NCBI GenBank assembly: GCA_938002085.1
Contig: CALLAT010000009.1
Coordinates: 6,760 to 70,759, forward strand
Reading direction: 5' to 3'
DNA length: 64,000 nt
Source: an uncultured Pseudanabaenaceae cyanobacterium
GTDB taxonomy: Bacteria; Cyanobacteriota; Cyanobacteriia; PCC-9006; JAAUQQ01
Below, piece by piece: positions 7,135 to 52,928 of the stretch (its first letter is position 1; the number at the start of each line of letters is the position of its first letter). A program made the translations under genes and the position numbers. The notes under the pieces were generated by a model. It ran no database searches. It was not told where the DNA came from and was given only the letters and a program-made list of their open reading frames with translations.

Positions 7135-7327
7135 TAGGCTTCATAGAAAGCCTGGCCTGACAAGGGTGGTTGTGAGGATCGTAAAATCGCGCTATGGGAC
7201 TGTATGTGAATAGGGAAATTTGGCCATATTCACGGATTATTTCGTGGGAGGGAAGGGAAATACTGAGACTAGATAGAGTTAGCAAGGGATGATCTCTACT
7301 TAGCTCAGTTATTGGAACCCTCGCGCC

Positions 7328-10300
7328 ATGGTCTGTCCCCGCGGCGTTAATTGTCGCAGTCTGCTTTTGTTGCCGCTGCTGGGAGTTGTTGCCCTGGATG
7401 CTAGCGCTGTCGCAGCTCCCGGACCGGTGCCGGTCAGTTTGCCTTCCCTGGCAGTGGTTGAACCACGGCTGGATGGTCCTGCGTTTCTACTCGCTTCTGC
7501 TTCGCGTTCTTCTGCAGTGCCAGGGACCTCCTCCACTGAGTCGTTGGAAGCGCAGCTGTCTTCGCACACCGCGGCCCTAGGTCTCCAGCTCAATTCTTTC
7601 GACTCCCCCCATTACCTCGCCCAAGTTATTCCCAGCGTTTTAGGGACTCAGACTCATGTGTCTACCGATGTCGGTGGAAACCGCTTTGAGATTGATGGGG
7701 GAACTCAGGTTGGAGGTAATCTCTTCCATCGTTTTGAGCAGTTCGATCTGACGACTGGACAGGTTGCTCGCTTTTTATCTAATTCCACGATTGCATCCAT
7801 TTTTAGCCAGGTGACTGGGCCTGCTTCATCCATTGATGGATTGCTCCAGGTGAGTGGGAGTGGTGCAGATTTATTTCTGATTAACCCAGCAGGGATTTTG
7901 CTAGGGCCGAATGCAAAGCTGGACCTGAGCGGTTCGTTTACGGCGACAACGGCGAGTCGGCTGGGGTTTGGGGAGCAGTGGATTGATCTGTTGGGAGAGG
8001 GGATTGGTGCAGAGACTGAGATCGCCGCTCCCTTAACTGTTCTGGAATTTTCTGGGGATGGGGGAGCGATCGCCAATCAAGGCCGACTAGCAGTCGCTCC
8101 GGGAGAAAGCATTGGGCTGCTGGGTCATGCCGTTGTCAATACTGGCTCCTTAGAAGCACCGGGGGGACAGGTCACGCTGGCCGCCGCGAAGGCTGGGCAG
8201 CGCCTGAGCTTGGATGGAGGCCTGCTGAATCTTGATTTGAATGCTCCTACAGGGGAGTTATTACCCCTGCCATTTGCTTCTACTGCTCTCGGAGCTTCCC
8301 TTGCTGAGGCAACAAGCTTGCAGGTCAGTGCCGATGGCATGATTTCTTTGGAAGCTGGTACAGCGATCCTCTCAGGTGATATTGACGTTTCTGCCCTGGA
8401 CAAGGCTGGAGGTCAAGTCAAGCTACTGGGAGAGTCTGTTCGCTTAGTTAATTCTGTTGTTGATGCATCTGGTCACCAAGGCGGTGAAATCCTTGTTGGG
8501 GGAAACCAGCAAGGTCAGGGAACGTTGCTGCGCGCTCGCCAGACTCAAGTGGATTCTACTTCTGCCTTGCATGTGGATGCTTTGGGAGCTGGAGATGCTG
8601 GCCAAATTATTGTTTGGGCTGACGATGCTACGCAGTTTTCTGGGACGATAACGGCGACAGCCCAGACTGGCGAGGGGGGCTTCGTTGAGACTTCTGGTAA
8701 GCGATTTCTGGACGTTGCAGGGGCCAGGGTCGATGCCAGTTCCCTGGCAGGTGGTTCTGGTGATTGGCTTTTAGATCCCACGGATATTTTGATTCAGGTG
8801 GGCGGTGGAGGAAGCATTGCTGCGGAAAGCTTTGACCCGGCTACGACGGGCCCAGCCAGCGTTATCGCGCCCAGCACGATTGAAAACGCCTTGGATGGGG
8901 GCACCAATGTCACGATCACCACGGCTGGGGGCACAGGCGGGAATGGTGATATCACGCTGAATGATCCGATTAATCAAACGGCTGGGGGCAGTGCTTCATT
9001 CACGTTGACCGGGCGGCGCTTCGATCGCAATGGCGGTGCTCAAATTAATCTCACCAGTACAGGGGGATTGACCTTCAATCTCAACCAGGTCAATGGGGAA
9101 TCGAATCCATCAACCCAGTCGATTCAAACTGCGATCGACAGTATTGGGACTGTTAATGGACCTCGTCTGATTACCCTGGGGCCAGGTTCTTATGTGGGAC
9201 TGCCAGGTGCTGACCTCATCACGATTGATACTGACTTAACTCTGGATGGACTAGATCGCCTGCAAACCTTCATCAGCGGCAGTAACAATGCTCGTGTTGT
9301 TGCCATTGCCCCTGGAACAACAGCAACGCTACAACGGTTGAATATCCAAGATGGGCAAACGGCTGCTTCTGGAGCTGGCATTCTCAATCAGGGAAATCTC
9401 AGCCTGATTGATGTTCTCTTACAAAACAACATTGCAGGTTTGGATGGAGGAGCAATTGATAGCAGTGCAACGAACTCTAGTCTGACGACTGGGGCTGATA
9501 CAGTCATTGCGAACAATCAAGCGGGTCGTAATGGGGGTGGGTTGGTATTAGGCGGTAATAGCCAGATTGAGGATGGTGGCATTATTGGCAATGTGGCTGG
9601 TAATGATGGCGGTGGTGTACACAATACAGGTGTTTTGAGGCTGAGCCGTTTAGGTGTCTCGCAGAATGCTGCGGCCCAAGGGGGGGGAGTTGCCAACGTT
9701 GGTAGCACAGCCAGTACGACGATCCAGTCTTTTGCTGTGCGGGATAATGATGCGACTGGAAATGGCGGTGGTATCTTCAATGACTCTGGCACCCTAGCCA
9801 CGCTTAATGGTTCTTTTGACAACAACACCAGTGGTCGCAGCGGAGGGGGACTGTTCTCTTCTGGCCCCACCTCTATGCTGAATACTGGCTTTGATACGAA
9901 TCAAGCTGCCCAGGCGGGCGGAGGAGCCTTTCTTTTCGGTGCGACTGCTGATTTGCAGGCGCTCTCATTCCAAAACAATCAAGCTGCTGGTGATGGGGGA
10001 GGGCTACGTCTTTCTGACATCACGGCAACGTTGTCCAGTAGTGACTTTTTGAATAACCAGGCTGATTTTGGTGGTGGACTAGAAGCGAGTGGCTCTGGCT
10101 CGGTGACGCTCAATAACGTGACCTTCCTGGAAAATGTAGCCCTTCGCTTGGGCGGTGCATTACAAAATGATGATTCGGTTGTCTTGGTCGCGAATGAACC
10201 TATTTTTGATCGCAACCGAGCTGATCTTCATGGAGGGGCAGTCCATAACAATTCAAGCTTGACTATCAACGATGGATTGTTCATTGATAACAGTGCTGTC

Positions 10301-13300
10301 CTAGATGGTGGGGGCATTCGTAATTTCAGTGGGCAGTTAACCCTCAATCAAGGAACGTTTCGCAATAACACTGCATCTCGTTACGGTGGAGCGATTCATA
10401 ATGCTGATCGGTTAGCTGCGGATGGTGTGACCTTTGAAACGGGGCAGGCGGTGGCGGGGGGAGCTATCTTTAGCCAGGCAGGGCAGAATGTTGTGACCAA
10501 TAGCCTGTTCGATCGCAATGTGGTGAGCCAAGGTGTCACAACAGGAGATGGTGGAGGTATTTATAGCTTCCAAAGTGACTTGTTTGTGGGTGACTCGACC
10601 TTTCGCAATAATCAGGCTGAAGACTTTGGTGGAGCAATTGTTAGTTCTGAAGGTGATCTGTCAGTTGTTGGAGCAATATTTCAGAATAATAGTGCAAGGA
10701 TTGGAGGAGGGCTGCATCAGAATGTTGGTGAGTTAGCGATCACCGATTCCCAGTTCCTCAATAACCAATCTCAGCAGCAGGGCGGGGGGCTAAATTTATT
10801 TGGGGTCACGAATAGCCAAATCCAACAAACGCTTATCCAAGCCAATCAAGTCGCAGCTGGGGGGGGCGGCGGCATAACCCTGGGGGGCGAAACAGATCTC
10901 ACCTTGGAGAGGGTTTCACTATTTCGAAACTTGTCAGCAAGGGGCGCGGGCTTGGACGCTTCTAGCTCGTATAGCTATAGTGGCACGCTGAACATTCTCA
11001 ATAGCGCGATCGCCAATAATCAATCCACCGGTAATGGAGGGGGGATTGATGTTAATCCCCTGGCTTTGGGAGGCGACGTCGAAATTGCTAACTCAACGAT
11101 TAGTGGAAATACCAGTGAGAATGACGGGGGGGGGATCGCTATTGGCGCTAATGCAACTTTTGATATCACCAACTCGACACTCGCTCTTAATCAGGTGAAC
11201 AATCGCGGTGGTGGAATTGCGGCTTTTGGTACTGCTGATTTGACCCATGTGACTGCTACGGATAATCAAGCGACTGGCCAAGGTGGGGGACTCTTTGCTG
11301 GTGGAGCAAGCGGCCAGATTCGTTTGACACATACTATCGCTGCAACAAATCAGGCACCTGTGGGCACTGATGTTTCTGGCAACTTTGATGACCAAGGCAA
11401 TAACTTAATTGGAAATCTGGATGGAACCTCTGGATTTACCAACAGCACTCTCCTAGGCAGTAGCGCCAGCCCGATTGACCCATTGCTGGCACCTTTGGAT
11501 AACTATGGGGGGCTGAATGCTACGGCTGCATTGCTGCCTGGTAGTGTTGCGATTGACGCAGGTAGCTCTGCCATTGCTGCAGATCAGCGTGGGGTGGCGC
11601 GGGTTAATGCTGTGGATATTGGTGCCTTTGAGTCCCAGGGATTTGTCACCGCTAGTCCGGTTGGGACACCTCAAAGTACAGAGGTGAATACGGCTTTTCC
11701 CCAGCCATTGGCGATGGGAATCTCCAGCTCCTTTGGTGAACCCGTTGATGGTGGACAAGTTGAGTTTGCAGCACCAGCCTCCAGTGCGAGCATCGCCTCA
11801 AATCAGAACCCAATACCCGTCACAATCACGGGCGGTGTGGCTCAGCTCTCCGTGAATGCGAATGGAATTGTCGGAGAATATAATGTAGAAGCAACTGCTG
11901 TGGGCGTAAGCCCAGTTGTTTTTGAGTTGACGAATTTACCTGCTCCCGACCCTGAACCACCATTGCCGACGCCGGACCCTCCTGCAGCACCACCGACACC
12001 GACTGTTGAACCGCCGCCAGTGATCTCCCCGCCAGAGCCGCCACCTGTTGTTGTACCAACATTTCCCTCGCTCACTCCGGAGGAACCATCACCCGTAGTC
12101 GAACCACTGCCTGTCGTCGAACCACCGCCCGTGATCGAATCGCCCGTGGAAAGGCCTTCGGCCGAACCAGTTGTCTTTGAACCGCCTGCCTTGGCGGAAC
12201 CCACTTTGTTGCCGTCTCGTCTCCTAGAATCTCCCAGTCAGCCCTTGTCGGGAGAGTCACCCCTCAGTTTGTCCAGTAGTGAGTCTGTGGCCAAGATTGA
12301 TGCTGACTTCTCTGCTCAATACACCAGCTATTGGCATGCGGCTTCTACAGAAGACTCACCTGTGGGCCAATCTGGCAGTGTTCTAGGAGGAGAGCGCTCT
12401 GGGAATGCCTTGGCCAATACTCGCGAATTGCTAGATCGAGCAGAGGCTGCCCACGGGGTGAAGTCTGCGGTGGTTTATGCCCTGTTTGTGCCCCAGGACA
12501 AAGCCAATGACGAGCGCTTTGGTCAGACCCAAGTGGCTAGTATGGCCCTCCGCCGCCGTCAACAAACCGATGCGGTTCGGGATGATGATTTACTGATGCT
12601 GGTATTAGTGCCCAGCGCAGGGGAGCCGGTGCAGCGCTTGATGGATGTGACGCGTCAAGAAGTGATGCAGCAGGTCCGGCTATTTCGTATGGCGGTGGCA
12701 GATCCGGAAGATCCATGGAGCTTCCGTCCCCTGGCTCAACAGATTCAAAGTTGGCTTTTTGCGCCTATTGAACCTGACCTAGAGCGTTTGGAACTTGATA
12801 ACACCATGTATGCTCTGGCACCGGGGCTGCGGGCGATTCCTCTGGCGGCAATGATGGATGGGGATGAGTTTGTGATTGAACGCTATGGCATTTCTCTGAT
12901 TCCCAGCGTGGATTTGTTGGAGACGGACTTTGGCTCTTCGCCGCCGCCGCCCCAAACTCTGGTTGCTGGTGCGAATGAATTTGAACAGTTAGCAGATCTG
13001 CCCGCAGTAGAGTTGGAATTGAATGCGATCGCTAATCAGCGCGAATCGGTAGATGTGCTGTTCAACCAGGAGTTTACCAAAGCAAACTTGATAGAAACCC
13101 AAAAACAAGGGCAGGCCAAAATGCTCCACTTAGCCACCCATGGTTCTTTCAATGCAGGTGACCTGGGGCGTTCTTATTTACAGTTTTGGGATGGTCAGCT
13201 AACCCTGGATGAAATTAGTCAAATGGGTTGGAACGATCTAGAGCTGTTGATCCTCAGCGCTTGCCAAACTGCCATTAACAGCCCTGAAGCAGAGCTGGGC

Positions 13301-13612
13301 TTTGCAGGCCTAGCGGCGGCGGCGGGTGTAGAAAGTACCATTGGTAGCTTGTGGACGGTCTCTGATATTGGAACGTTGGGGATGATGGCAGAGTTCTATG
13401 GACAACTGAACCAGGAACCACTGCGATTTGAGGCTTTACGCCAGACACAGCTTTCGATGATTCGTGGGGAGACGGCGATCGCCCATCAGCAGTTGCGCAC
13501 TGAGCAGGGGGAGATTGATTTGCCGCCAGAGTGGCAATTGCCTGAGACGGCAGATTTCTCCCATCCCTTCTATTGGTCTGGATTTACGCTGGTGGGTAAC
13601 CCCTGGTGGTAA
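7328..13612 (+). CDS. Giant TPS-domain (filamentous-haemagglutinin N-terminal) beta-helix exoprotein with C-terminal CHAT peptidase domain, 2094 aa
   Basis: Single uninterrupted ORF with a hydrophobic leader (SLLLLPLLGVVALDASAVAA). It contains a TPS domain, GEGGFVETSGK..WLLDPTDILI, GGAI/PMP repeats, a DQRG..DIGAFE cap, one Ig-like domain, a Pro-rich spacer and a CHAT domain. It is paralogous to 1..7134. Confidence 0.93.
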   Translation: MVCPRGVNCRSLLLLPLLGVVALDASAVAAPGPVPVSLPSLAVVEPRLDGPAFLLASASRSSAVPGTSSTESLEAQLSSHTAALGLQLNSFDSPHYLAQVIPSVLGTQTHVSTDVGGNRFEIDGGTQVGGNLFHRFEQFDLTTGQVARFLSNSTIASIFSQVTGPASSIDGLLQVSGSGADLFLINPAGILLGPNAKLDLSGSFTATTASRLGFGEQWIDLLGEGIGAETEIAAPLTVLEFSGDGGAIANQGRLAVAPGESIGLLGHAVVNTGSLEAPGGQVTLAAAKAGQRLSLDGGLLNLDLNAPTGELLPLPFASTALGASLAEATSLQVSADGMISLEAGTAILSGDIDVSALDKAGGQVKLLGESVRLVNSVVDASGHQGGEILVGGNQQGQGTLLRARQTQVDSTSALHVDALGAGDAGQIIVWADDATQFSGTITATAQTGEGGFVETSGKRFLDVAGARVDASSLAGGSGDWLLDPTDILIQVGGGGSIAAESFDPATTGPASVIAPSTIENALDGGTNVTITTAGGTGGNGDITLNDPINQTAGGSASFTLTGRRFDRNGGAQINLTSTGGLTFNLNQVNGESNPSTQSIQTAIDSIGTVNGPRLITLGPGSYVGLPGADLITIDTDLTLDGLDRLQTFISGSNNARVVAIAPGTTATLQRLNIQDGQTAASGAGILNQGNLSLIDVLLQNNIAGLDGGAIDSSATNSSLTTGADTVIANNQAGRNGGGLVLGGNSQIEDGGIIGNVAGNDGGGVHNTGVLRLSRLGVSQNAAAQGGGVANVGSTASTTIQSFAVRDNDATGNGGGIFNDSGTLATLNGSFDNNTSGRSGGGLFSSGPTSMLNTGFDTNQAAQAGGGAFLFGATADLQALSFQNNQAAGDGGGLRLSDITATLSSSDFLNNQADFGGGLEASGSGSVTLNNVTFLENVALRLGGALQNDDSVVLVANEPIFDRNRADLHGGAVHNNSSLTINDGLFIDNSAVLDGGGIRNFSGQLTLNQGTFRNNTASRYGGAIHNADRLAADGVTFETGQAVAGGAIFSQAGQNVVTNSLFDRNVVSQGVTTGDGGGIYSFQSDLFVGDSTFRNNQAEDFGGAIVSSEGDLSVVGAIFQNNSARIGGGLHQNVGELAITDSQFLNNQSQQQGGGLNLFGVTNSQIQQTLIQANQVAAGGGGGITLGGETDLTLERVSLFRNLSARGAGLDASSSYSYSGTLNILNSAIANNQSTGNGGGIDVNPLALGGDVEIANSTISGNTSENDGGGIAIGANATFDITNSTLALNQVNNRGGGIAAFGTADLTHVTATDNQATGQGGGLFAGGASGQIRLTHTIAATNQAPVGTDVSGNFDDQGNNLIGNLDGTSGFTNSTLLGSSASPIDPLLAPLDNYGGLNATAALLPGSVAIDAGSSAIAADQRGVARVNAVDIGAFESQGFVTASPVGTPQSTEVNTAFPQPLAMGISSSFGEPVDGGQVEFAAPASSASIASNQNPIPVTITGGVAQLSVNANGIVGEYNVEATAVGVSPVVFELTNLPAPDPEPPLPTPDPPAAPPTPTVEPPPVISPPEPPPVVVPTFPSLTPEEPSPVVEPLPVVEPPPVIESPVERPSAEPVVFEPPALAEPTLLPSRLLESPSQPLSGESPLSLSSSESVAKIDADFSAQYTSYWHAASTEDSPVGQSGSVLGGERSGNALANTRELLDRAEAAHGVKSAVVYALFVPQDKANDERFGQTQVASMALRRRQQTDAVRDDDLLMLVLVPSAGEPVQRLMDVTRQEVMQQVRLFRMAVADPEDPWSFRPLAQQIQSWLFAPIEPDLERLELDNTMYALAPGLRAIPLAAMMDGDEFVIERYGISLIPSVDLLETDFGSSPPPPQTLVAGANEFEQLADLPAVELELNAIANQRESVDVLFNQEFTKANLIETQKQGQAKMLHLATHGSFNAGDLGRSYLQFWDGQLTLDEISQMGWNDLELLILSACQTAINSPEAELGFAGLAAAAGVESTIGSLWTVSDIGTLGMMAEFYGQLNQEPLRFEALRQTQLSMIRGETAIAHQQLRTEQGEIDLPPEWQLPETADFSHPFYWSGFTLVGNPWW
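7619..7972 (+). other. TPS / haemagglutination-activity secretion domain of giant 2
   Basis: [74 protein letters not shown] matches the hallmark N-x-F-H-x-F and (L/I)INPxGI motifs of TpsA N-termini. Confidence 0.85.
9370..11632 (+). other. PMP-type (GGAI/GGGL) beta-helix repeat region of giant 2 with DQRG..DIGAFE cap
   Basis: The repeat logic is the same as in giant 1 but the sequence is divergent. Boundaries are approximate. Confidence 0.75.
12450..13609 (+). other. CHAT peptidase module of giant 2 (core about 12730..13609)
   Basis: The His codon is 13139..13141 (LHLATHGSF) and the Cys codon is 13262..13264 (LILSACQTA). By eye it is about 70% identical to the giant-1 module (not computed), and the last 20 aa are identical. 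Confidence 0.85.
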
Positions 13613-14086
13613 GGGCTGGCCTGTTTGGCTCTGGAAGTTGATCTCTCAGGAGAGTGGTTCTTCGCATTTGTACGCAGGGAGACTCGGGTTGGACACTTTG
13701 GCTTAGGGAGATTTAAGGGACTGGAATCGTCGCGATCGCAGTTTTACTGAAGCCCTTATCCATGGAATAAATAGAGAGGATAGTAGCTTTATCAAAGCCC
13801 TAAAAATACGTTTAAAAGCCTTGGGTTTGCTTTGCCTAAGACCTGAAGCGGTTGGTTATTCTGGGTCTATATTTAAGTCAGGCCTCACCGTCTAAAGCCT
13901 CTGTGAGGGCTGACTGTATCGCGTTTGAGCTGCTCCTACCCAGCGGTTTTACAGTTGGGATTGGAGCTAAGAAGCGTGATCAACGCAAACTTGCCAAGTT
14001 CATCCTCAGCATCCATTGCTGCCTGCCAGTTCAGCTGACGTTACGCCGTCCAGGGACTCTCCGGTTCTCATTAGGTTTTGTAGATT

Positions 14087-14935: not shown

Positions 14936-14980
14936 TGATTGGAGGAGGGAAGCCAGGGCTATTGCACTTCGTAAGCACTT

Positions 14981-25136: not shown

Positions 25137-25364
25137 GGCGATGTTGCGGTATTGCAGTAATTAATTATGTCTGGGAGTCGCCGGGTCGCACTTTTGTAAA
25201 GTGAAAACCTCAAGCGGCACTGCTTCCGTCATTATTGTGGCAGCCCTGCGCTAGGTCTAGGGCTGGGTTGCCAGCAAAGCAATGTGGCCACCAGGTTACA
25301 GGCTGATTTAAGTCTCAGTGATTGCTGATCAGCCCTGGCATTGGAAGTTAACAGGGGAGCCATC

Positions 25365-26852: not shown

Positions 26853-26958
26853 GGGAAGATGTAAGTTAAGTATGAGCATGGTCGAGCCGACCGCCTATGT
26901 CGTTTGAGAGTTGGGCAATCTATGGGTAGGTTTTCCCCACCCTGAGTGTGCAGACTCA

Positions 26959-29334: not shown

Positions 29335-29367
29335 GCTCTACATGGAGCTGAGGGGCAATTAAATCGA

Positions 29368-29405
29368 GAGGGGGCGAGCTTAAAAAAACTAAAGCTCGCC
29401 CCCTC
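29368..29405. terminator. Bidirectional stem-loop terminator between convergent genes
   Basis: gagggggcgagctt (29368..29381) and aagctcgccccctc (29392..29405) form a perfect 14-bp GC-rich stem with an A-rich 10-nt loop. It sits between the stop codons at 29334 (+) and 29431 (-). Confidence 0.75.
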
Positions 29406-29430
29406 CCGGTCGATTACAGCTCAATTGAGC

Positions 29431-29904
29431 TTAAGCCGCCAATGCCTTCTCAATGTCTGCCGTCAGGCTGCCATCCATGGGCGTTACACCACTCTGATAG
29501 CGACCAATCACCTCGCCCGTTTTGCTAATCAAGAACTTCTCAAAATTCCAAGCCACATCTTCACCCTGGGTCAGCTCAGCATAGAGAGGGTGCTGCTCTC
29601 CGCCCTTGGCATGGACCTTGTCAAACAACTGGAAAGTGGTGCTGTAGTTGACATCGCAGAACTCAGCGATCTTCTCATTGCTGTCGGGCTCCTGGGCACC
29701 GTAGTCATTGCAGGGGAACGCCAGCAGCTCAAAGCCTTGACCCTGGTACTTCTTGTACAGCTCTTCCATACCCGCATACTGCTTGGTGTAGCCGCAGTAG
29801 GAGGCCACGTTGACGATCAACAGCACCTTGCCGCTGTATTCGGAGAAAGTCTTGGCATCCCCAGTAATGGTCTTGACGCTGATATCGGAAATGTTGGGAG
29901 CCAT
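29431..29904 (-). CDS. gpx: Glutathione peroxidase-family protein (Cys type)
   Basis: Gpx signatures LLIVNVASYCGYT, LAFPCNDYGAQEP and WNFEKFL. Confidence 0.92.
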   Translation of the reverse strand: MAPNISDISVKTITGDAKTFSEYSGKVLLIVNVASYCGYTKQYAGMEELYKKYQGQGFELLAFPCNDYGAQEPDSNEKIAEFCDVNYSTTFQLFDKVHAKGGEQHPLYAELTQGEDVAWNFEKFLISKTGEVIGRYQSGVTPMDGSLTADIEKALAA

Positions 29905-29969
29905 GGTCGAGTTAAATATGAAGCAATATTACATCTCGATTTTGCCATGGCAGGGCCATCTCTGCCGGA

Positions 29970-30989
29970 TTAGCTTTGTGTTGCCACAACCGGGGTGTCT
30001 CGCTCTGCGGGGAGGACGGCCCGCTTGACCCAAATGCGATCGCAAGTCACTACCAAATCCATCGCAATATAGGGCAGATGCTCCTGCAACTCTCGGTAGA
30101 GCCGCGATCGCAACTCATCCGCCTCAGGCGTGCCAAACTCCTGGGCCTGCTCCGGCGTCAACCGCAGATAAATTTGCACATAGGACAACCGCCCAATATT
30201 CAGCGGACGCAAGTGATACTCCGCATGGGGAACCGTTTCCAGCACCTCATCCACAACGCCCCTTAACTGTTCCTGATCCTCCGCAGCCGGAGCCCGCCCC
30301 GCGAGTTGGAGCCAGTTTTGCCAAATGGTTTGCAGGGGAATCGGCAGGATAAATAGCACCAGCAGGATAACGATGACGGGGTCTGCATAGGGGATAAGGT
30401 GAGACCAGGGCGATCGCTCCAAAAACAGCATCACTCCAAAGGCGACTGCCACTGCGCCACTCACCAGCCCGTCGATTAACCAATTCTTGGCATCCAGATC
30501 CAGCAACTGCGAATGGCACTGCTTGGCAAAGCGAGACTGCATCAGGGCCAGCAGCCCACAGCCCAGGGCCGCTAGGGCTGCATACCAAATGGCAATATCG
30601 GCCTCCACAGAGCGCCCCCCGTGGCGAATCGCATCCACCGAAGAGAACAGGGCACAGATCGCCACAATGGCAATGACAATGCCCTTGCCCAGGTTGAGCA
30701 TGGGCTCCAGGGCCACGTAACCAAAGGGATAGTCCTCATTGCCGGGTTGCTGGATCAGGTGGGAGACCTGGAGGGTAATCAGAGAAATAACGAGGTGAAT
30801 GCCAGAAAAGATGCTGTCGATGAAAATCGCCTCGGAGAGCGTCAGCAGTGCAAAGCCCAGGCCCATTAGGGTAATCAGGAAGTTCCCTAGCAGGGTGAGG
30901 CGTAAGGCCTTTTGCTCCAACAGATCCAGGTCTTGGGGGTCTCGGCTGTTCTGGTTTTGCTGCGGAGTCTGCGGTACAGAGGCGCTCAT
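29970..30989 (-). CDS. Cation diffusion facilitator (CDF) family transporter
   Basis: Six predicted TM helices and a C-terminal cytoplasmic domain. The overall layout and length are CDF-like, with a conserved DxxxD/HxxxD-like region FIDSIFSGIHLVIS. Confidence 0.75.
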   Translation of the reverse strand: MSASVPQTPQQNQNSRDPQDLDLLEQKALRLTLLGNFLITLMGLGFALLTLSEAIFIDSIFSGIHLVISLITLQVSHLIQQPGNEDYPFGYVALEPMLNLGKGIVIAIVAICALFSSVDAIRHGGRSVEADIAIWYAALAALGCGLLALMQSRFAKQCHSQLLDLDAKNWLIDGLVSGAVAVAFGVMLFLERSPWSHLIPYADPVIVILLVLFILPIPLQTIWQNWLQLAGRAPAAEDQEQLRGVVDEVLETVPHAEYHLRPLNIGRLSYVQIYLRLTPEQAQEFGTPEADELRSRLYRELQEHLPYIAMDLVVTCDRIWVKRAVLPAERDTPVVATQS

Positions 30990-31446
30990 GGTGGTTGCAG
31001 CTGGATGTCCCTAGCGATGACAGAGCAAGCATTTGACGGAATTGCTCCATTCCCCATTCTCTGACTTGCTGGGACCCTTGGCGGGTGGGGCCGGGGCAGT
31101 GATAGGAAACGCAGCATTGCTTTACGACTTTGTAAGCCCTTGCTCTCTCTCTGGGTTGCGATACGTGACTGCATATTTGAGCAGGAGCCACCCTAGAGAG
31201 GTGGGAGAGCCATGGATGGGCGGGAGATGAGATTGGCGAGGACTAAATCGGGTTTGGGCATGATGAGGTGTAAAGCTTTTGCTGAGCTTCACTGCTCGCT
31301 GGGCTGACTTTGAGTAAGTTGAAGCATTGGCGATATCCAACCTCTGCTGGCTCGATGACTCTGGAGTCAGCTTGCTGATGGCATCGTTAAGTTGCAGTTT
31401 GCGGCTTCCCTGTGTTCTATTCGTATCCTTGATTCGGGGCAGGTCT

Positions 31447-34400
31447 ATGGCTTCCAGGAAGTATAAAGCTGGGCAATTACAACAATCTGCTGCCCGACGG
31501 GCTTGCCCTTGGCTGGGGACCGGGTTGATGCTGTGGGTTGGCTCGGGCGTTGGTGCCGAGGCCTGGGCCCAGTCCTTGAGTTCGAATATTTTGCCCAGTA
31601 CAGATGGTACGGGGTCGGTTGTCCTGCAAGCGGGCGATCGCTTCGACATCACGGGCGGAAACCTATCTAGCAATGGTCAGAACCTCTTTCACAGCTTTGA
31701 GCGCTTTGGCCTCGACTTGGACCAAACGGCAAACTTTGTCGCCTCCCCGGAGATTCGCAATATCCTCGGACGGGTGACCGGGGGCGAGGCGTCTTATATT
31801 GATGGCCTATTGCAGGTGAGCAATGGCACGGCTAACCTGATGCTGATCAATCCGGCAGGCATTTTGACTGGGGTCAATAGCCGCATTGATGCACCGGGGT
31901 CATTCACCGCAACCACCGCAGATTGGCTGGGCTTCGATGGCCAATGGCTCAATGTTTTGCATGGCAGCGCCTTTAACGCTGGCAATGGTGAGCTGACGGG
32001 CCTGGGCTTTTCTGCCGCTGCACCGGGTGCCATTGTCAATGAAGGTCAGATTCGCGTTGGGACGGGGCAGCGGCTACGACTCGTGGGCGGAACGGTTTTG
32101 AATACGGGGGAGCTGGCTGCTCCCAATGGCGAGATTACGCTGCTGTCGGTGCTGGGCCAGCAATCGGTGGATTTTGGAGTGAATGGCGCGATCGCCTTGG
32201 GCTCATCCCCACCGGGAGAAGCGCCGCTGCTAACGCTTCAGACCGTGCCTGAGTTGTTGGCTGCGAGAGCCCCCAACCAGGCCACTCAGCTTTCGGTGAA
32301 TGCTGGGGGTGAGGTGCAGTTGCTGGGGCAAGTTGTGCCGGTAGAAGCGGGCTTGGCGATCGCCGCTGGACAGCTGGATGTGTCGGCAGAACAAGGGGGA
32401 GTGGTTCAGGTTTTGGGCGATCGCGTGGCACTGCTTTCTGCTGACATTAATGCCACGGGCATTCAAAGTGGCGGCGAGGTGCTGATCGGGGGAGATTACC
32501 AGGGCCAGGGCGCTGTCCCCAATGCTCAACAAACGGTGGTGGATCGTGACTCGACGATTGCTGTGGATGCTTTAGCAACTGGCGATGGTGGACGGGCGAT
32601 TGTTTGGGCCGATGGAACGACGCGATTTACAGGACATATCTCCGCGACAGGGGGAAGCCAACAGGGGGACGGCGGCTTTGTGGAAGTCTCTGGTAAAGGG
32701 CATTTGGCCTTTCGAGGTACGGCGGATGTGACTGCTCTCCAGGGCCTTGCCGGAACGCTGCTGCTGGACCCCGAGCGTATTCAGATTGTGAATGGCAATG
32801 GTGGGAGTAATGACTCAGCGCTTGGCGGTGGCGGCGTTTTCCGTAGCGAAGGCGGAGCGGCCACATTCACCATTTCGGAGACGGCCTTGGAAGCCCTGAG
32901 TGGCAATGTTGTGCTGGAAGCGACCCGAGAAATTGAGATTGAAGACCTGACGACGGATGGTCAACTGAGTTTGCCCAATGTCAGTTCAATCACCTTTGAT
33001 GTGAGCGGTCCGGGGCTGTCCGATTTCACCATGGCAAATCGGGACAACAGGATTATCACCCAGGGGGGGGATGTGGTAATCGATGTTGATACAGAAATTG
33101 CGACAGGCGGGATTATCACGAATGGGGGAGATATCACCTTAAGGGCTGGCTCCGTCATTGATTTAACCGAGAATTTGTCGCTTCAGTCAGGGGGCGGCAA
33201 TATCACTTTGGACGGGGCCGTCCGGGGCAATGCTTTTGATGTGGGCGCGCTCAGCCTCAACGCCGGGATGGGCGATATTTCCATTGATGGCACCATCGGG
33301 AACAGCAGTGGCCCAGAGGCCGTGGCCAATATTACGATGCTGGCCAACAACATTGACCTCGGACGCTTTTTTAATCGCTCCATCAACGGCGAGGGCAGCA
33401 TTTTGATTAATGGCCAAGGGGAGGTTTCGACCGGTCCCAGCCAATCCATTCGCGGAGCCCAGGGGGTTACGGTTCTGGGGGATTCCGTGACCTTAGATCG
33501 GGCTCAGTTGGTTTCGTCGAACCAGAGTATTGTTGTTAGTGCAACTAATGCCCTCGCCCTGCAAGGAGGGGGCTCCACTTTGGCGGGGGCTACGAGCGTT
33601 AGTGTGGAGAGCGCGAGTTTGGAGGGGGCCGGACGGTTTGCTCGTTTGGCTCTGGAAGCTTCAACCCTGTCGGTGGAGGTTAATGGCGATATCGATATGG
33701 CTGGCTTGGCCTTGGAGGGGCAAGATGGAACCGTGCGATCGCTTACGGGCAGTCTCACTGGCGGAGGCGCAACAGTTGCAGCGGCTGAGTTGACCAATGA
33801 CCTGCTGCTAGAAGCTGGGCAAGACATCACCCTGACCGAAAGCGATCTTCGAGTGGGACGAGACTTGACCTTACAAGCCAACGGCTCTGTCACGCTCACC
33901 GATGGAGAAGAGCCCATGGCCCTGGTGGCCGGGCGTGATCTCACGGTGCAGGGCAATAGCGCCACCACGGTCAATGCCTTCCGTAATCCGGCTTCGATTC
34001 TCCAGGCTGGGCGTGACTTGCGGCTGCGGAGTGATGGTCCGATCCAAGTCAATGCGGTCTTGGATAGTGGGGCTAGTGGCAGTGGCAATCTGATTGTGGA
34101 GCGGCTGTCGGATGGTAACCCAGCGGATTTTGATAGCACCACGCCGAGCTTTACGACGCTGCTGCGGGCTAATGGAGATGTGACCTTTGGCGATTACGAA
34201 GGGACCTCGCTCAAAATTGTTGCCACGGGCAATATTGATGGGGGCAATATTGAGATTGTCGGGAGTAACCCTGGCTTAACGGGGGCAGACCCAGAGCTAG
34301 CGGTGTTGCAGAGCCAAGAGGCTTTGATTTTAGAGGCTGGAGTGGATGCGATCGCGGGGACAGCCAACCTACCGCCGGATCAATCCGTCGGTAATACAAC

Positions 34401-36027
34401 TGTTTCCTCTAGCGCGACCCCAGATAGCCTTGGTCGCCTCACCATTGGCGATGTGGTAGGGGTGCAAGGTCCGGTTCGGTTGCAAGCTAAGGGGCCGATT
34501 GTCACTGGCAATATTGATACCCAAACCGATTTTTCCAATCCTGGCCTGAAGAACCCCATTGCCATCACCTCTGCCCAGGGCAGCGTAACCACAGGCGAAC
34601 TCTTTGCTGAAAAAGGCAACATCACGGTAACGGCTGCGGGAGATGTTTTCGTCACAGATCTGAGTAGTGGTGGATTAGATTCCAACTCCAATGGACTCAC
34701 GAGAACGGAGCTGACCTCAACCACCGGGGGCGTGCAGTTTAATACAATTGATGCCGGAGCCGATGGGCTCTACATTACGGCGGCAACCTTTGTGCGAGGT
34801 TTGGGCTCTAGTACTAATGTGGGTTTCAGTAATGTGCTGGTCAATGACCCTGACTTGATTAACTATTTGGTGAGCGAGGGCTTTGATGCCACAGCCTTAG
34901 AAACGGCAACGGCTGCAGATGCTTTTAGAGCGCCTGGTGTGGCGTTGAATCCTGCTACCGCGAAGCCGCGCTTTAGTATTGTGATGCGACCTGCAGGAGC
35001 TAATGCCGATGGGCTGAATGCGCCGGTTGTGATTCAGTATGGCGATCGCACTGAAACCCTGGTTGACCGCAACTACACCATCGATGGGATTCCCTCGCGA
35101 GTCTTGATCGAAGGGGATAGTCAGCAAGCCTTCCGCCTAGGCCCAGCTTTTGATGGGCAGCCTGCCTATGAGCCAGCGAATGCTGCGGATACGCTGGCAG
35201 GCTATGACCCTGTCACCAATAATTTTGACTTTGCTGTGGTGGAAGGACGGGCCTTGAGCTACGGCACGGATGAGTTTCCCACGGAGGCCAGTGGCTTGGC
35301 AGGGGGGATTGTGGTGGGTGAAGGCAGTAACGGTGCCTTTTATGCGTCTTTGCAAGACCAATCCTTTGACCCTACTTCTACAACGGTCGGGACCGGAACT
35401 GGAACCGGAACGGGTACGGGCACGGGTACAGGAACAGGAACAGGCACGGGCACAGGAACAACAACTGGAGTAGGAACGGGGACCGGAACCGGGACAACAA
35501 CGGGAACGGGAACCGGAACAGGTACTGGAGCAGGAACAGGCGCAGGAACAACAACTGGAGCAGGAACGGGGACCGGAACTGGGACAACAACGGGAGCCGG
35601 AACAGGAACAGGAACGGGCACGAATACAGGAACCGGCTCCGGCTCTGGGACCGGGACTGGAACTTCAACTAATCCTGCGATCGCCAGTCGCAGTGCCACG
35701 GCGGCGCAACGGCAAACGGGGCCTCAAGATTCGGTTTGTGAGGACTTAAGCCCAGATTCAGTGGAGGCTGTGGAAGCTCCTGTCGTTTCTGAAGAATTAG
35801 AGAGACCCGCACCTCGGGGTGAAGCCCAAGCCCAGACGAATCAGCCCTGTGGACCGACTGTTGATCGCGCGGCTGAACCGGCCACCTTGTTGCGCAGCAT
35901 CACTGTACCTGTGCTACCTGAGGATGCGGCTATGCCCGAATTCTCTGAGGCGGCTTTGCCGGACGTGAGGGACAGCGAGGCGGAAGGAGAAAGGAATGGT
36001 GAGGTTGAGTTGACCGGAGAATCGTAA
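31447..36027 (+). CDS. TPS-domain (filamentous-haemagglutinin N-terminal) beta-helix exoprotein without a CHAT domain, ~1526 aa
   Basis: The ATG at 31447 gives [26 protein letters not shown] (signal-like). It has a TPS domain, [21 protein letters not shown], a long beta-helical passenger, a Thr-Gly repeat and an acidic tail. The ORF-track start at 31327 adds an implausible 40-aa extension. Confidence 0.9.
31585..31935 (+). other. TPS / haemagglutination-activity secretion domain
   Basis: [78 protein letters not shown]. Confidence 0.85.
35389..35664 (+). repeat. Thr-Gly dipeptide repeat (92 aa) encoded by an imperfect (ACN GGN)n hexanucleotide array
   Basis: [47 protein letters not shown] with a higher-order TTTG(A/V)GTGTGTG periodicity. 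It is in frame within 31447..36027. Confidence 0.95.
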
Positions 36028-38510
36028 TGAATTGGAGTCGTATCGCAGCATTACAGCTAGGGGTGGCCTGGGCGATCGCGTTCAGCTCCCCCGTTGTTGC
36101 CCTGTCCAAGGTTATGCAGCCTAAGGTTATGCAGCCCACAGCCACCCTCGCCCAGACCAGCACCCCAGGGTCTCGTCTTTCGGTGGAGCAGCGCTATCAA
36201 ACAGCCAAGCAACAGGCTGAATCAGGGCAGTACGATGCTGCGATCGCGACCTATCAAGCCACCCTCACCGAAGCCCGCTCTGCTGCCCCTGACTTTGTCC
36301 CATTTCTGCTGGGCAACCTGGCCATTGCCTATCGCGTCACCGGGCAATATCAGTTGGCGATCGCCAAGAACCAGGAGGTCATTGCCCTCTTCAGACAACA
36401 GGGCAATACTGCTCTGGAAGGCCGAGCCCTGAGTAACCTAGGCAATGTTTACGAAGCCCTGGGCAACTACGACCAAGCCCAGCAAGCCTTTGAACAGGCC
36501 CAATCCCTCGCCCAGCAAACCGGAGACCGGGCAGGACAAACTGTGTTGTGGAATAGCTTGGGGGTTCTCGCGGCCAAGCAGGGAAAGTCTAACGAAGCTA
36601 TTGCGGCCTACCAGCGCAGTCTTGCCTTGGCAACGGAGAGTGGCAATGGCGCTGCCCAGGCCAGTAGCTGGCTTAACTTAGGGGATGCCTTCCACGCTAA
36701 GGGAAAGCTCAATCAAGCCCTCGATTACTACCAAGACAGCTTGGCTGCGGCTCAGTCACTAGACAATGCCACGCTGGAAGCCGAAGCCTTGGGAAGCTTA
36801 GGCGTTGCCTATACCAGTCGTCGCGATTTCGCTAAAGCGGTTGAGCATCTGGAGCAAAGCTTGGCTTTATTTGAGGCCAAGGGCGATCGCGCCCGCCTCT
36901 CCCTCACGCTCAATAACCTGGGCCATGCCCATTACAATGCCCGCCAATACAGCCAGGCCGAAGCTCAACTGCGACGCGCTCTGACCGTGCTGGATGACCT
37001 ACGCCAGGGCCTGAGTGACCTCGATAAGGTCTCCATCTTCGATACCCAAACCAAAACCTATAACCTGCTCCAGCAAGTTCTCAGCACCCAAAGCCGCAGT
37101 GCGGATTCCCTTGAAGTAGCGGAGTGGGGCCGGGCTCGGGCCTTTGCAGATTTGCTCAACCAGCGCCTCGAAGATAAAGGTGATGCTTTGACAACTGTCG
37201 AGCCACCTAGGATTGCGGAACTGCAGCGTATTGCCCGCGATCGCCAGGCCACCCTGGTTGAATACACCCTAGTGCCCGAAGACGACTTTCTTCACCAGGG
37301 CAAGCAGATGGGCATTCCAGAAGCCATCTACATTTGGGTCGTCCAGCCCGATGGCAAAGTCCACCAGCGCCGGGCCGACCTCAAACCCCTGATTGCTCAA
37401 CAACAACCGTTGGAATTATTGGTGCGAGCCTCGCGATGCTTTGAGTCTGCCCGTATTTGTAAGCGCCAACTGCAGCGGCAAATGCGAGAGCGAGCAGCGG
37501 AGGGCTCGCGAGGATTTAGTTTTAATCCTCCTGAACCTGCAGAGGTTGTCGAAGCCTCTAGCCCCAATCGACAAAGCTATGCAGGATTGCAGCAGCTCCA
37601 TCAGTTGCTGATCGAACCCATCGCTGAGCTATTGCCCGATGACCCGGAGCAACAGGTGATTGTGATTCCCCAGGGGGAGTTATTTCTCGTGCCGTTTCCA
37701 GCCTTGCAGGATGAGTCAGGAGAATTCCTGATTGCTCGCCACACCTTATTAACCGCCCCATCCATTCAAACCCTGGCCTTAACAGAACGGGCTAAAGCTC
37801 GATTACCCAAGCATCAGAAGACAGCGCAGGACTTTCTTGTGGTTGGCAATCCCACCATGCCCACTGTGGCGTTGCGTCCTGATTTGCCAGCCACGCCTCT
37901 GGCTCCCTTGCCCGGCTCTGAAGCGGAGGCGATCGCCATTGCGTCAGCCCTCAATGCCCAGCCTCTCATCGGTCCCCAGGCCAAAGAATCGGTGGTGCTC
38001 AAACGCTTGTCCCAAGCTCGCTGGGTTCACTTCGCCACCCATGGGTTGCTGAGCTACGGTGTAGGTCCAGCGGGGCAAAAAATTGGACGCCGTCCCGTAC
38101 CGGGAGCGATCGCCTTAGCCACCGATGCAGCCGGCACCGCCAGTGATGGCCTCGGGGCCGATAACATTCGCCTGGATGGTCTGCTGACCTCCAGTGAAAT
38201 CATCAACTTGCGTCTCAATGCGGAGCTGGTGGTGCTCAGCGCCTGTGATACAGGGCGCGGTGACTTGACCGGAGATGGTGTGGTTGGACTCGCTCGGGCC
38301 TGGATGGGAGCTGGAGTACCTTCGGTGGTGGTGTCGCTTTGGGCTGTTTCTGATGAATCGACTGCTGCGTTAATGCAGACGTTCTACGACAACTTAGGCC
38401 AGGGTCTGACTAAGGCTCAAGCCTTGCGCCAGGCTATGTTGACGACCTCCCAAACCTATCCCAACCCCTCGGATTGGTCGGCCTTTACGCTACTGGGCGA
38501 GGCAGAATAA
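36027..38510 (+). CDS. Exported TPR-repeat CHAT-domain (caspase-like peptidase) protein
   Basis: The ATG overlaps the upstream TAA (TAATG, 36025..36029). The N-terminus is signal-like ([27 protein letters not shown]). Multiple TPRs span about 36183..37002. The CHAT domain spans about 37585..38507, with His 38040..38042 (VHFATHG) and Cys 38244..38246 (VVLSACDTG). Confidence 0.92.
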   Translation: MNWSRIAALQLGVAWAIAFSSPVVALSKVMQPKVMQPTATLAQTSTPGSRLSVEQRYQTAKQQAESGQYDAAIATYQATLTEARSAAPDFVPFLLGNLAIAYRVTGQYQLAIAKNQEVIALFRQQGNTALEGRALSNLGNVYEALGNYDQAQQAFEQAQSLAQQTGDRAGQTVLWNSLGVLAAKQGKSNEAIAAYQRSLALATESGNGAAQASSWLNLGDAFHAKGKLNQALDYYQDSLAAAQSLDNATLEAEALGSLGVAYTSRRDFAKAVEHLEQSLALFEAKGDRARLSLTLNNLGHAHYNARQYSQAEAQLRRALTVLDDLRQGLSDLDKVSIFDTQTKTYNLLQQVLSTQSRSADSLEVAEWGRARAFADLLNQRLEDKGDALTTVEPPRIAELQRIARDRQATLVEYTLVPEDDFLHQGKQMGIPEAIYIWVVQPDGKVHQRRADLKPLIAQQQPLELLVRASRCFESARICKRQLQRQMRERAAEGSRGFSFNPPEPAEVVEASSPNRQSYAGLQQLHQLLIEPIAELLPDDPEQQVIVIPQGELFLVPFPALQDESGEFLIARHTLLTAPSIQTLALTERAKARLPKHQKTAQDFLVVGNPTMPTVALRPDLPATPLAPLPGSEAEAIAIASALNAQPLIGPQAKESVVLKRLSQARWVHFATHGLLSYGVGPAGQKIGRRPVPGAIALATDAAGTASDGLGADNIRLDGLLTSSEIINLRLNAELVVLSACDTGRGDLTGDGVVGLARAWMGAGVPSVVVSLWAVSDESTAALMQTFYDNLGQGLTKAQALRQAMLTTSQTYPNPSDWSAFTLLGEAE

Positions 38511-39535
38511 GTCTCTGGATTAGCTTGGCTGCGATGAATCGCCTGGTTTCGACCCTGTTGTTTCGCCAAGTACAGCGCTTGGTCGGCGGACTTGAGTATT
38601 TGGGCAGGGGGCATGTTATTCAGGGGCATGCAGGTACTAATGCCTTGGCTCACCGTGACATAGTTGCTCACGCTGGATGACTCATGGTGTATTTCCAGGC
38701 GAGCAATTTCGGTTTGAATGCGATCGGCGACGTAGATCGCTCCTGCTGCATCAACGTTGGGCAGAATGATGGCAAATTCTTCTCCGCCGTAGCGAGTGAG
38801 TAAATCCCCTGGACGCTTCAGCAGAAGTTTTACAGCTTGGGCAATTTGCGCCAGGCAAGTATCTCCGGCGGGGTGGCCATAGCGATCGTTATAGGCCTTG
38901 AAATAGTCGATGTCGAAGAGGATGAGTGAGAGAGGCATGCGTTCCCGACGCAGCCTGAGCCATTCTTGGTTGAGGCGCTCATCAAAACAGCGACGGTTGC
39001 CGACTTGGGTCAGCCCGTCAATATGGACGAGCTGTTGGAGTTTTCGATTATTTTCGGTGACGGTGCGGTTGCGTAGTTGGAGAGTTTTATTGGCCTGTTG
39101 AAGATTGCGGTTTGCCGTTTTCAGAGTCGTTGTCTGTTGCCGAATGCGTAGATGATTGTCCACTCGGGCCAGTAACTCCAACCGTTCAAGCGGCTTGGTC
39201 ACATAATCTACGCCGCCAGCTTTAAAGCCTTGAACCTTGTATTGGGGTTCGTCCAAGGCAGTCATGAAAATGATGGGGGTTTCGCTGAGAACAGGGTCGG
39301 TTTTGAGTTGTTTGCACAGCTCAAAGCCACTTATGTCAGGCAACATGACATCCAGCAAGATCAGTTGTGGCTTCACCAGTTGGGCGCTTTCCAGGGCACT
39401 ATTTCCGTCGGTAGCCACAGCCATCTCGAATTGCTTCTCTGCCAGAAAATTTAGCGCAACGCTGAGATTCTCGGGATTATCATCTACAACTAAAATGCTT
39501 GGCTTGGCTGGCTTGGAGAGAGAGGCTAGGGACAT
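38456..39535 (-). CDS. Response-regulator diguanylate cyclase (REC-coiled coil-GGDEF)
   Basis: REC domain (ILVVDDNPENL..DVMLPDISGFELC..). GGDEF domain with RYGGEEFAIIL and an RxxD I-site (RPGD) five residues upstream. ATG is at 39535. The 3' end overlaps the TPR-CHAT gene by 55 nt. Confidence 0.9.
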   Translation of the reverse strand: MSLASLSKPAKPSILVVDDNPENLSVALNFLAEKQFEMAVATDGNSALESAQLVKPQLILLDVMLPDISGFELCKQLKTDPVLSETPIIFMTALDEPQYKVQGFKAGGVDYVTKPLERLELLARVDNHLRIRQQTTTLKTANRNLQQANKTLQLRNRTVTENNRKLQQLVHIDGLTQVGNRRCFDERLNQEWLRLRRERMPLSLILFDIDYFKAYNDRYGHPAGDTCLAQIAQAVKLLLKRPGDLLTRYGGEEFAIILPNVDAAGAIYVADRIQTEIARLEIHHESSSVSNYVTVSQGISTCMPLNNMPPAQILKSADQALYLAKQQGRNQAIHRSQANPETYSASPSSVKADQSEGLG

Positions 39536-39791
39536 TGGGTTGGTTGATGCAAAAGCGCTCAGGCGACCTGAGGTTAACAAAAAATGCCATGGAAAATTGC
39601 AATCTCAGTGACAGCTATGGGTGTATGCACGGATTGATGCTTGCAGTTACGCAAGGATTCTCTACCCCCATGCCTGTCGATTGATGCCAATCTAGGTTGT
39701 CAACCTAACCTAGAATGCCCGTCTTGCAGCCAGATACCGTCTCAAGAGCCAAATTAAAATGAGAGGCCTGGAAATTGCTTAGTGAGTCTTA

Positions 39792-48539: not shown

Positions 48540-52928
<4,389 letters not shown>

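Follow-up and report, generated by a model that had tools for sequence, protein, structure and literature searches.

A predicted caspase-like protease encoded together with a two-partner-secretion exoprotein in filamentous cyanobacteria

Introduction

HMW1 and HxuA of Haemophilus influenzae, exoproteins (TpsA) of two-partner secretion (TPS) systems, are locked in their TpsB partners by a C-terminal disulfide loop and end in the periplasm (PMC5422565). In Pseudomonas aeruginosa, periplasmic LapG cuts the periplasmic tail of CdrA under the control of cyclic di-GMP (c-di-GMP), and the adhesin is released (PMC5422565). TPS operons, the same review states, do not include the genes of proteases that mature or release the TpsA (PMC5422565). 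The locus described here, in which a gene for a caspase-like protease overlaps tpsA, departs from this statement. It occupies positions 31447-38510 of a 64,000-nucleotide stretch, hereafter the window, from an uncultured Pseudanabaenaceae cyanobacterium (contig CALLAT010000009.1, positions 6,760 to 70,759), and joins the gene of a TpsA fibre to that of a protein made of tetratricopeptide repeats (TPR) and a CHAT domain. The pair is termed locus B, to set it apart from locus A at window positions 1-16804, where TPS and CHAT belong to single giant proteins.

TPS systems, CHAT proteases and protease-controlled release of TpsA proteins are each already known. What appears to be new is their combination: a TpsA with a two-cysteine tail has a caspase-like partner that is encoded in its operon, often by an overlapping gene, and is at times fused to it, an arrangement conserved among filamentous cyanobacteria and often accompanied by DUF928 and CHASE2 proteins. 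No description of this combination was found in 7.7 million full texts and bioRxiv, nor any literature that links the term "CHAT domain" with filamentous hemagglutinin, CHASE2 or DUF928 or, among the papers listed, with two-partner secretion in cyanobacteria. Database labels call these proteins simply "CHAT domain-containing" or "filamentous hemagglutinin family".

Comparison With Described Systems

In the CdrA/CdrB-LapG system of P. aeruginosa, a periplasmic cysteine protease cuts the C-terminal tail of a TpsA adhesin, which decides whether the adhesin stays on the cell and is linked to c-di-GMP; in locus B, the TpsA tail carries two cysteines, the partner is a predicted cysteine protease with an export signal, and GGDEF genes lie nearby. 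The two differ in the protease, which here is not of the LapG family but a CHAT protein (clan CD, caspase-like) with a TPR array, and in its gene, an operon member here that shares bases with the end of tpsA and in some relatives forms a single ORF with it. No likeness to LapD or LapG was seen among the profiled open reading frames (ORFs) of the window, a set that leaves aside many smaller ORFs. Locus B may thus work like CdrA/LapG, but it is not a member of that system. A C-terminal pair of cysteines, as in HMW1 and HxuA, is present in the TpsA of the window and in 62 of 73 homologues of the TPS-only kind, but there is no sequence similarity. The disulfide here is predicted, its loop would span 37 residues followed by a conserved hydrophobic-basic motif and an acidic extension, and a dedicated protease partner is present. 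FhaB of Bordetella offers a further parallel, in that an exported protease dedicated to this TpsA, SphB1, processes it and sets it free (PMC5422565). However, SphB1 belongs to the subtilisin autotransporters and its gene lies apart from the fha locus, whereas the protease here is caspase-like, predicted to be periplasmic and operonic. As for the hallmarks of TPS (type Vb) systems, the window TpsA has a predicted signal peptide and a TPS domain, and no cognate TpsB gene stands beside it. TpsA proteins of contact-dependent inhibition (CDI) and polymorphic toxin systems, in which a toxin domain follows a pretoxin motif at the C-terminus and an immunity gene comes next, differ from the window TpsA, which has no toxin-domain match and whose gene pair is followed by a convergent gene.

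The closest solved structure to the protease is that of DdvA, a Myxococcus anti-sigma factor with a periplasmic TPR-CHAT region and a His-Cys dyad, for which signal-induced proteolysis has been proposed (PMC11506125). Both proteins combine a TPR superhelix with a CHAT domain bearing this dyad, at 15% sequence identity. In DdvA, a zinc anti-sigma domain in the cytoplasm and a transmembrane helix precede the TPR-CHAT region, and the protein has an ECF sigma factor as its cognate partner and is encoded within a defence island, whereas the window protein has only a predicted 25-residue signal peptide and a disordered linker before its TPRs, a TPS partner, and cation-efflux and REC-GGDEF genes but no sigma factor as neighbours. 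The TPR-plus-CHAT architecture and fold also occur in Csx29 of Craspase (type III-E CRISPR) and in eukaryotic separase, both of which are held inactive until a partner alters their conformation. These are cytoplasmic or nuclear proteins whose partners are Cas7-11 (gRAMP) with Csx30/31, or securin, whereas the window protein has an export signal; neither gene flanking locus B is a cas gene.

A Recurrent Gene Pair

The elements of the pair are the following.

31447..36027, plus strand: tpsA, encoding a TPS-secreted exoprotein of 1526 amino acids (TPS as sole Pfam family match; TIGR01901; syntenic orthologues in L001 and L081)
36016..36029, plus strand: coupling junction, with GGAG at 36016-36019 and the stop TAA at 36025-36027 overlapping the start ATG at 36027-36029
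36027..38510, plus strand: TPR-CHAT protease gene, encoding 827 amino acids (Pfam; AlphaFold2 model)

A sequence-only reading of this DNA had described a TPS exoprotein without a CHAT domain, a TAATG overlap with a TPR-CHAT gene, and a His and a Cys in that domain, and all of these sequence-level statements hold. The ATG of tpsA is at 31447, although the longest ORF begins at a TTG at 31327, and 7 nucleotides separate GGAG from the ATG of the protease gene. A scan with a TPR-CHAT profile over one genome per species yielded 79 loci, all cyanobacterial except one on a short contig, and 53 of them, the window included, had enough upstream sequence to be assessed. Directly upstream and on the same strand, 15 of the 53 have a TPS-domain ORF, and three more carry TPS and TPR-CHAT in a single ORF (L003, L009 and L018, the first and second confirmed with Pfam). 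The recurrence of TPR-CHAT genes immediately 3' of TPS genes, which the earlier reading had named as a comparative check, is thus borne out. In a distance tree of the C-terminal 500 residues of the TPR-CHAT proteins, every adjacent or fused member falls in the lineage of the window, where they make up 18 of 20 assessable loci (15 adjacent, three fused). The sister lineage has a TPS neighbour in 0 of 32, and the upstream genes there are mutually unrelated. The recurrence (15 adjacent and three fused among 53), clustered in one lineage, rules out a chance adjacency of tpsA and the protease gene.

The association is also seen from the side of the fibre. When seven TPS-only TpsA homologues were looked up in their genomes, a TPR-CHAT gene followed in five, twice after a tandem TPS pair; of the other two, one lies on a truncated contig syntenic with the window and one is without TPR-CHAT. 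A CHAT domain is part of the same polypeptide in 47 of the best 120 TpsA homologues, and two of these have TPRs as well. Together with the 18 of 20 loci in the window lineage, this supports, beyond what the window alone could show, the earlier proposal of a partnership between TPS fibre and CHAT protease. It is very likely, from gene context, that the two work together, and their link appears as well supported as such evidence allows. The same proposal had extended to a defined stoichiometry, which finds no echo in the relatives: L004, L008, L065, L084 and L086 have two or three TpsA genes for one TPR-CHAT gene.

The junction itself is compact wherever the pair occurs. The 15 adjacent loci comprise nine overlaps and six gaps of 8-69 nucleotides; five overlaps have the form ATGA (L002, L007, L017, L052 and L065), two the form TAATG (the window and L006), and two are longer apparent overlaps (L010 and L071). 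Loci found through TpsA add further ATGA overlaps (L084, L086) and gaps of up to 92 nucleotides. A promoter and terminator scan of 30900-38800 gave two promoter-like and three terminator-like sites, fewer than in shuffled sequence, and is uninformative on an internal promoter. Because the two genes overlap or sit 5-92 nucleotides apart in every relative examined, with no promoter or terminator signal above chance between them, co-transcription is very likely. Locus B can accordingly be described, on these comparisons, as a putative two-gene operon that is widespread in filamentous cyanobacteria.

The only TPR-CHAT locus outside the cyanobacteria, L015, is a 2.8-kb contig in a gammaproteobacterial bin of a metagenome-assembled genome, which represents either mis-binning or horizontal transfer.

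Natural Fusions and Locus A

Six natural TPS fusions of the window's TPR-CHAT subfamily are known to us from the loci (L003, L009, L018) and from database proteins (P0066, P0158, P0237), and the same subfamily thus occurs both overlapping downstream and fused in frame. This is the Rosetta-stone pattern that had been suggested from the window alone. The fusions keep the two-cysteine tail of TpsA directly before a full TPR array and have no protease signal peptide. Because tail and TPRs are kept and the signal peptide is lost, they look like read-through joins of the gene pair. Their full TPR arrays speak against the idea that the TPR array takes over a docking role that covalent fusion plays elsewhere, and an AlphaFold2 chimera, described below, likewise gave no docking. 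More broadly, fusion of a CHAT protease to the exoprotein occurs in dozens of database proteins. Those without TPRs, including both giants of locus A, mostly contain a single cysteine, the catalytic one, and have no two-cysteine tail.

Locus A is another form of the same TPS-CHAT module: two TPS-CHAT giants are followed by DUF928 (14087-14935) and CHASE2-GGDEF (14981-16804) genes, and the order CHASE2-DUF928-TPS-CHAT is met again in L006, L065 and L083. The first giant is open from window position 1 and carries GGLVETSGK, a motif related to the GGFVEVSG of TpsA; it has no TPS match in the window because its N-terminus lies beyond the window edge, which cuts off its 5' end. The earlier assignment of the locus-B CHAT domain to a different subfamily from that of locus A stands, as the two share 26% identity and fall in separate clades of a neighbour-joining tree of CHAT domains. 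The tree is too poorly resolved to separate one from two origins of the TPS link.

In about ten TpsA homologues of some 1600 residues (P0174, P0177, P0183, P0194, P0200, P0205, P0219, P0235 and P0238), a glycosyltransferase domain of family 2 (PF00535/PF13641) shares the chain with TPS and CHAT; a glycosyltransferase inside a TPS passenger is unexpected.

The TPR-CHAT Protease

The 827-residue protein, which has one database entry of 100% identity (P0001) and 758 other homologues, comprises three parts.

36027..36101, plus strand: signal-peptide-like N-terminus, residues 1-25, ending between PVVA and LS (conserved hydrophobic segment; AlphaFold2 helix 6-19)
36174..37178, plus strand: TPR superhelix, residues 50-384, 17 helices (AlphaFold2 model)
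37212..38507, plus strand: CHAT caspase-like domain, residues 396-827 (PF12770; AlphaFold2; Foldseek)

The CHAT family PF12770 matches residues 521-825 with an E-value of 1.7e-70 (238 bits against a cut-off of 24), and TPR families are matched by Pfam over about residues 55-330. The profile of the TPR part resembles the peptide-binding TPRs of LGN/Pins and kinesin light chain. His672 (CAT, 38040-38042, in ATHG) and Cys740 (TGT, 38244-38246, in LSAC) are invariant in 100 homologues. A second pair of cysteines, Cys471 (37437-37439) and Cys478 (37458-37460), follows the consensus SRC.{6}C and is conserved at majority level, outside the invariant columns; it is likely to form a structural disulfide, which would fit export to an oxidising compartment.

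An AlphaFold2 model built with the 100 homologues (mean predicted local distance difference test, pLDDT, 87; predicted template-modelling score 0.88) shows a helix at residues 6-19, a disordered linker at 20-49, 17 TPR-type helices at 50-384 and the CHAT domain at 396-827; the loop beside Cys740 is of low confidence. Compared with Foldseek, the model has a TPR-CHAT fold of the separase/Craspase type: its best PDB match is the periplasmic TPR-CHAT region of DdvA (E 3e-14), followed by Csx29 and separase, all in the range of 1e-12 to 1e-14. A sequence search of the PDB with the CHAT half gave no meaningful match, and only the comparison of folds was informative.

Export is suggested by the N-terminus. 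The signal-peptide-like segment recognized in the sequence-only reading is conserved as a predicted feature in 15 of 15 TPS-adjacent homologues, and a hydrophobic segment is found at the same end in 31 of 34 sister-clade members; internal segments taken as controls show one in only 4 of 49. Because such segments recur in both lineages, the entire TPR-CHAT family looks exported. The window protein is therefore best described as a predicted Sec-exported periplasmic cysteine protease, its proteolytic activity likewise being predicted from the conserved dyad and fold.

Right after the predicted signal peptide, within the disordered linker, a perfect 15-nucleotide tandem duplication (36108-36136) encodes KVMQP twice.

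The TpsA Fibre and Its Tail

The fibre protein is organized as follows, all on the plus strand.

31447..31569: predicted Sec signal peptide, residues 1-41, ending between AEAWA and QS (basic n-region, hydrophobic core, AWA motif)
31582..32808: conserved N-terminal module, residues 46-454, common with a locus-A giant (BLASTP)
31606..32175: TPS secretion domain, residues 54-243 (PF05860, E 2.8e-34)
32809..35387: fast-evolving central shaft, residues about 455-1313 (identity to the L001 orthologue)
35388..35615: low-complexity spacer of Thr and Gly, with the hexanucleotide GGAACA repeated about 37 times at 35395-35615 (Tandem Repeats Finder)
35701..35898: C-terminal two-cysteine tail, with AAQRQ at 35701-35715, Cys1431 at 35737-35739, Cys1468 at 35848-35850 and TLLRS at 35884-35898
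35899..36024: acidic extreme C-terminus with the conserved motif P.LP.DA..PEFSE (also in P0121, P0122, P0124 and P0138)

TPS (PF05860) is the sole Pfam match, and the NCBIfam model TIGR01901 of the filamentous-hemagglutinin N-terminal domain also matches (E 2.1e-20); no CHAT domain was found in TpsA with Pfam and NCBIfam profiles. The N-terminal module is 45% identical to the second giant of locus A (7328..13612), with no alignment elsewhere. It contains the motif GGFVEVSG at residues 409-416 (32671-32694) and, also within the aligned block, a 10-residue motif at 438-447 (32758-32787). No Pfam family matches residues 455-1300, and the shaft is assumed, from what is usual in TpsA proteins, to be a beta-helix.

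The protein evolves unevenly. Its identity to the orthologue in L001, the closest relative, is about 70% over the first 500 residues, mostly 15-40% over residues 500-1200 and 53% over 1201-1300; TpsA is 46% identical, compared with 82% for the TPR-CHAT protease and 97% for the neighbouring glutathione peroxidase (GSHPx). The divergence of the shaft at 32950-35050, beside genes that are 82-97% identical, suggests diversifying selection or recombination in an exposed part of the fibre. The low-complexity spacer differs among relatives, which have TTTPV, PNPSN or PPGPQ repeats at the matching place. The Thr-Gly repeat and acidic tail noted earlier are both confirmed; in the last 58 residues, from Cys1468 to the end, there are 14 Asp/Glu and 4 Lys/Arg.

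Cys1431 and Cys1468 are the only cysteines of the mature protein, taken as 1485 residues after the presumed removal of the signal peptide. The TPS-only homologues counted above as sharing the pair have at least two cysteines within their last 130 residues, usually their only ones, and most of the rest, in which no tail cysteine is found, resemble truncated entries. The tails fall into a few types: ...QRQ[FL]..C, 25-45 residues (approximately), C..[IL]L[KQR][IL]...; a short C-HAT.L..G..EL.GSC loop; and the type of the window, ...AAQRQ..C..C..TLLRxI..P.LP.DA..PEFSE. All TpsA genes of a given cluster, tandem copies included, have one tail type in common.

Possible Functions of the Pair

A CdrA/LapG-like arrangement, in which a disulfide-looped periplasmic tail holds the fibre and the operon-encoded CHAT protease acts on this tail, is the reading that we tentatively favour, as plausible rather than probable. 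It is proposed because the disulfide anchor of HMW1 and HxuA and the cleavage of the CdrA tail by LapG are known (PMC5422565). TpsA would be threaded outward through a TpsB encoded elsewhere in the genome until the looped tail, unable to pass the pore, stayed in the periplasm and tethered the fibre, as in HMW1, HxuA and CdrA. There it would meet the TPR-CHAT protease made from the same transcript, and cutting of the tail, possibly at the conserved QRQ that precedes the loop or at the LLR/ILK motif after it, would decide whether the fibre is retained or shed. In the fused relatives, the folded protease itself might be the periplasmic plug and cut in cis. The outcome would be a functional equivalent of CdrA/LapG with an unrelated, operon-encoded protease. 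Sequence and comparison show the domain content, the overlapping and recurrent gene pair with its natural fusions, a conserved tail, export signals, an invariant dyad, the fold and, in conserved synteny, flanking c-di-GMP genes; the disulfide, the periplasmic retention, the cleavage and its site are what we infer. If the protease does control tethering and shedding, this would be a new and widespread switch of surface adhesion in cyanobacteria that might affect mats, biofilms, motility and symbiosis, and the first job assigned to a large family of exported cyanobacterial CHAT proteins.

Several observations weigh against this release of a tethered fibre. In a single-chain AlphaFold2 chimera of the 124-residue tail and the mature protease, modelled on an alignment that used the natural fusions, the tail had a pLDDT of 23-32 and docked neither in the TPR groove nor at the active site, an outcome that decides little because few sequences cover the tail. 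As P0125 (L082), a TpsA with no CHAT gene beside it, has a two-cysteine tail too, this tail may serve only for anchoring in TpsB. In the sister lineage, whose TPR-CHAT proteins also look exported, none of 32 loci shows a TPS gene next to the protease gene, so the family can have other substrates. A search with a hidden Markov model made from five TpsB proteins of related loci found no TpsB (POTRA_2 and ShlB) in the 64-kb window, and the frequent DUF928 and CHASE2 neighbours fit a role in signalling at least equally well. Finally, cleavage, localisation and interaction of TpsA and TPR-CHAT are all predictions.

Signalling is the main rival, although we judge it unlikely. The fibre would sense contact, shear or phage, the state of its tail would gate the protease, and the substrates would be DUF928 proteins or the ectodomains of CHASE2 receptors (GGDEF, kinase or CHAT), with an output in c-di-GMP or kinase activity. 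Within 10 kb of the 79 TPR-CHAT loci, CHASE2 is found in 17 and DUF928 in 12, in both lineages, and the genes form ordered clusters: CHASE2-DUF928-TPS-TPR-CHAT in L006, L065 and L083, and TpsB-TPS-TPR-CHAT-DUF928-CHASE2 in L061. L083 encodes a CHAT-CHASE2 fusion protein, the DUF928 and CHASE2-GGDEF genes of locus A stand beside its TPS-CHAT giants, and DUF928 proteins have signal peptides. That exported TPR-CHAT proteins occur without any TPS partner, and that the top structural match, DdvA, is a periplasmic TPR-CHAT protein and proposed proteolytic signaller, point the same way. However, locus B has neither DUF928 nor CHASE2, and its neighbouring REC-GGDEF and GAF-GGDEF-EAL proteins have no periplasmic domain; about two-thirds of the TPS-adjacent loci are without CHASE2 or DUF928 within 10 kb; and the substrates are hypothetical, the proteolysis of DdvA itself being only proposed. 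The linkage nonetheless provides a concrete candidate input for CHASE2 sensors, whose ligands are still described as unknown (PMC10581220). In the most far-reaching version, the fibre, the exported CHAT protease, DUF928 and the CHASE2 receptors would make up one trans-envelope relay, in which an event at the fibre (contact with a filament or surface, pulling, phage) would pass through the tail to CHAT, and from there by cleavage of DUF928 or CHASE2 ectodomains to a c-di-GMP or kinase switch. Such a relay is quite unlikely; if true, proteolysis of a caspase-like kind would run as a cascade in the periplasm of bacteria, and CHASE2 would have its long-missing input.

Two further explanations are weaker than signalling. 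The protein might be a periplasmic chaperone or scaffold whose TPR groove holds unfolded TpsA or its tail during export, with CHAT being structural, regulatory or used for a single self-maturation. TPRs of the LGN/kinesin-light-chain class bind extended peptides, they are kept in the fusions, translational coupling suits a partner required during TpsA synthesis, and the low-confidence loop beside Cys740 is as in resting-state CHAT domains. Yet the invariance of His672, Cys740 and their surrounding motifs in 100 homologues argues for retained catalysis, the chimera predicted no docking, and TPR-less TPS-CHAT fusions are so common that CHAT, not TPR, is the constant partner of TPS, which leaves a chaperone very unlikely. 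The other explanation, an effector or toxin delivered outward against competitors or grazers in the manner of the CdiA C-terminal toxin, with the split effector riding along with the fibre, draws on the C-terminal position of fused CHAT domains, which is that of toxins in CdiA-type TpsA, and on the hypervariable shaft between close relatives, as in polymorphic surface systems. We consider it highly improbable and have rejected it. With a Sec signal of its own and without a TPS domain, the protease of the split form has no known route through TpsB; no conserved small immunity-like gene lies downstream of the pair; no pretoxin or toxin family is matched in TpsA by Pfam; and of the two proteins it is the protease that changes slowly (82% identity against 46%), whereas polymorphic toxins behave in the opposite way. 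A reading as a defence system was also rejected, PADLOC having given a generic TPR match only.

Neighbouring Genes

TpsB adjoins the pair in L006, L010, L027, L061 and L075. Upstream of tpsA, the window (23490-30989) shows the order Ser/Thr kinase, DUF1565 beta-helix protein, GAF-GGDEF-EAL, glutathione peroxidase and cation efflux. This block is complete in L081, and L001, whose contig ends there, keeps only the glutathione peroxidase and cation-efflux genes. Within 10 kb of locus B there are three c-di-GMP genes. On the minus strand, a REC-GGDEF gene (38456-39580) converges on the TPR-CHAT gene and shares the last 55 nucleotides with it, which leaves no space for a terminator; in L001 the corresponding convergent overlap is 26 nucleotides long. 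The genes downstream of the pair, convergent in the window, are heterogeneous in relatives.

The CHAT-CHASE2 protein of L083 (4734-7106) has 790 residues with Pfam matches to both domains and is encoded directly upstream of DUF928-TPS-TPR-CHAT in a 3.9-Mb genome; it appears to be a CHASE2 sensor with a CHAT domain as its other module. Elsewhere in the window, a minus-strand gene at 48540-52928 encodes 1462 residues with Calx-beta domains and a weak match resembling a delta-endotoxin C-terminal domain, probably another large secreted protein.

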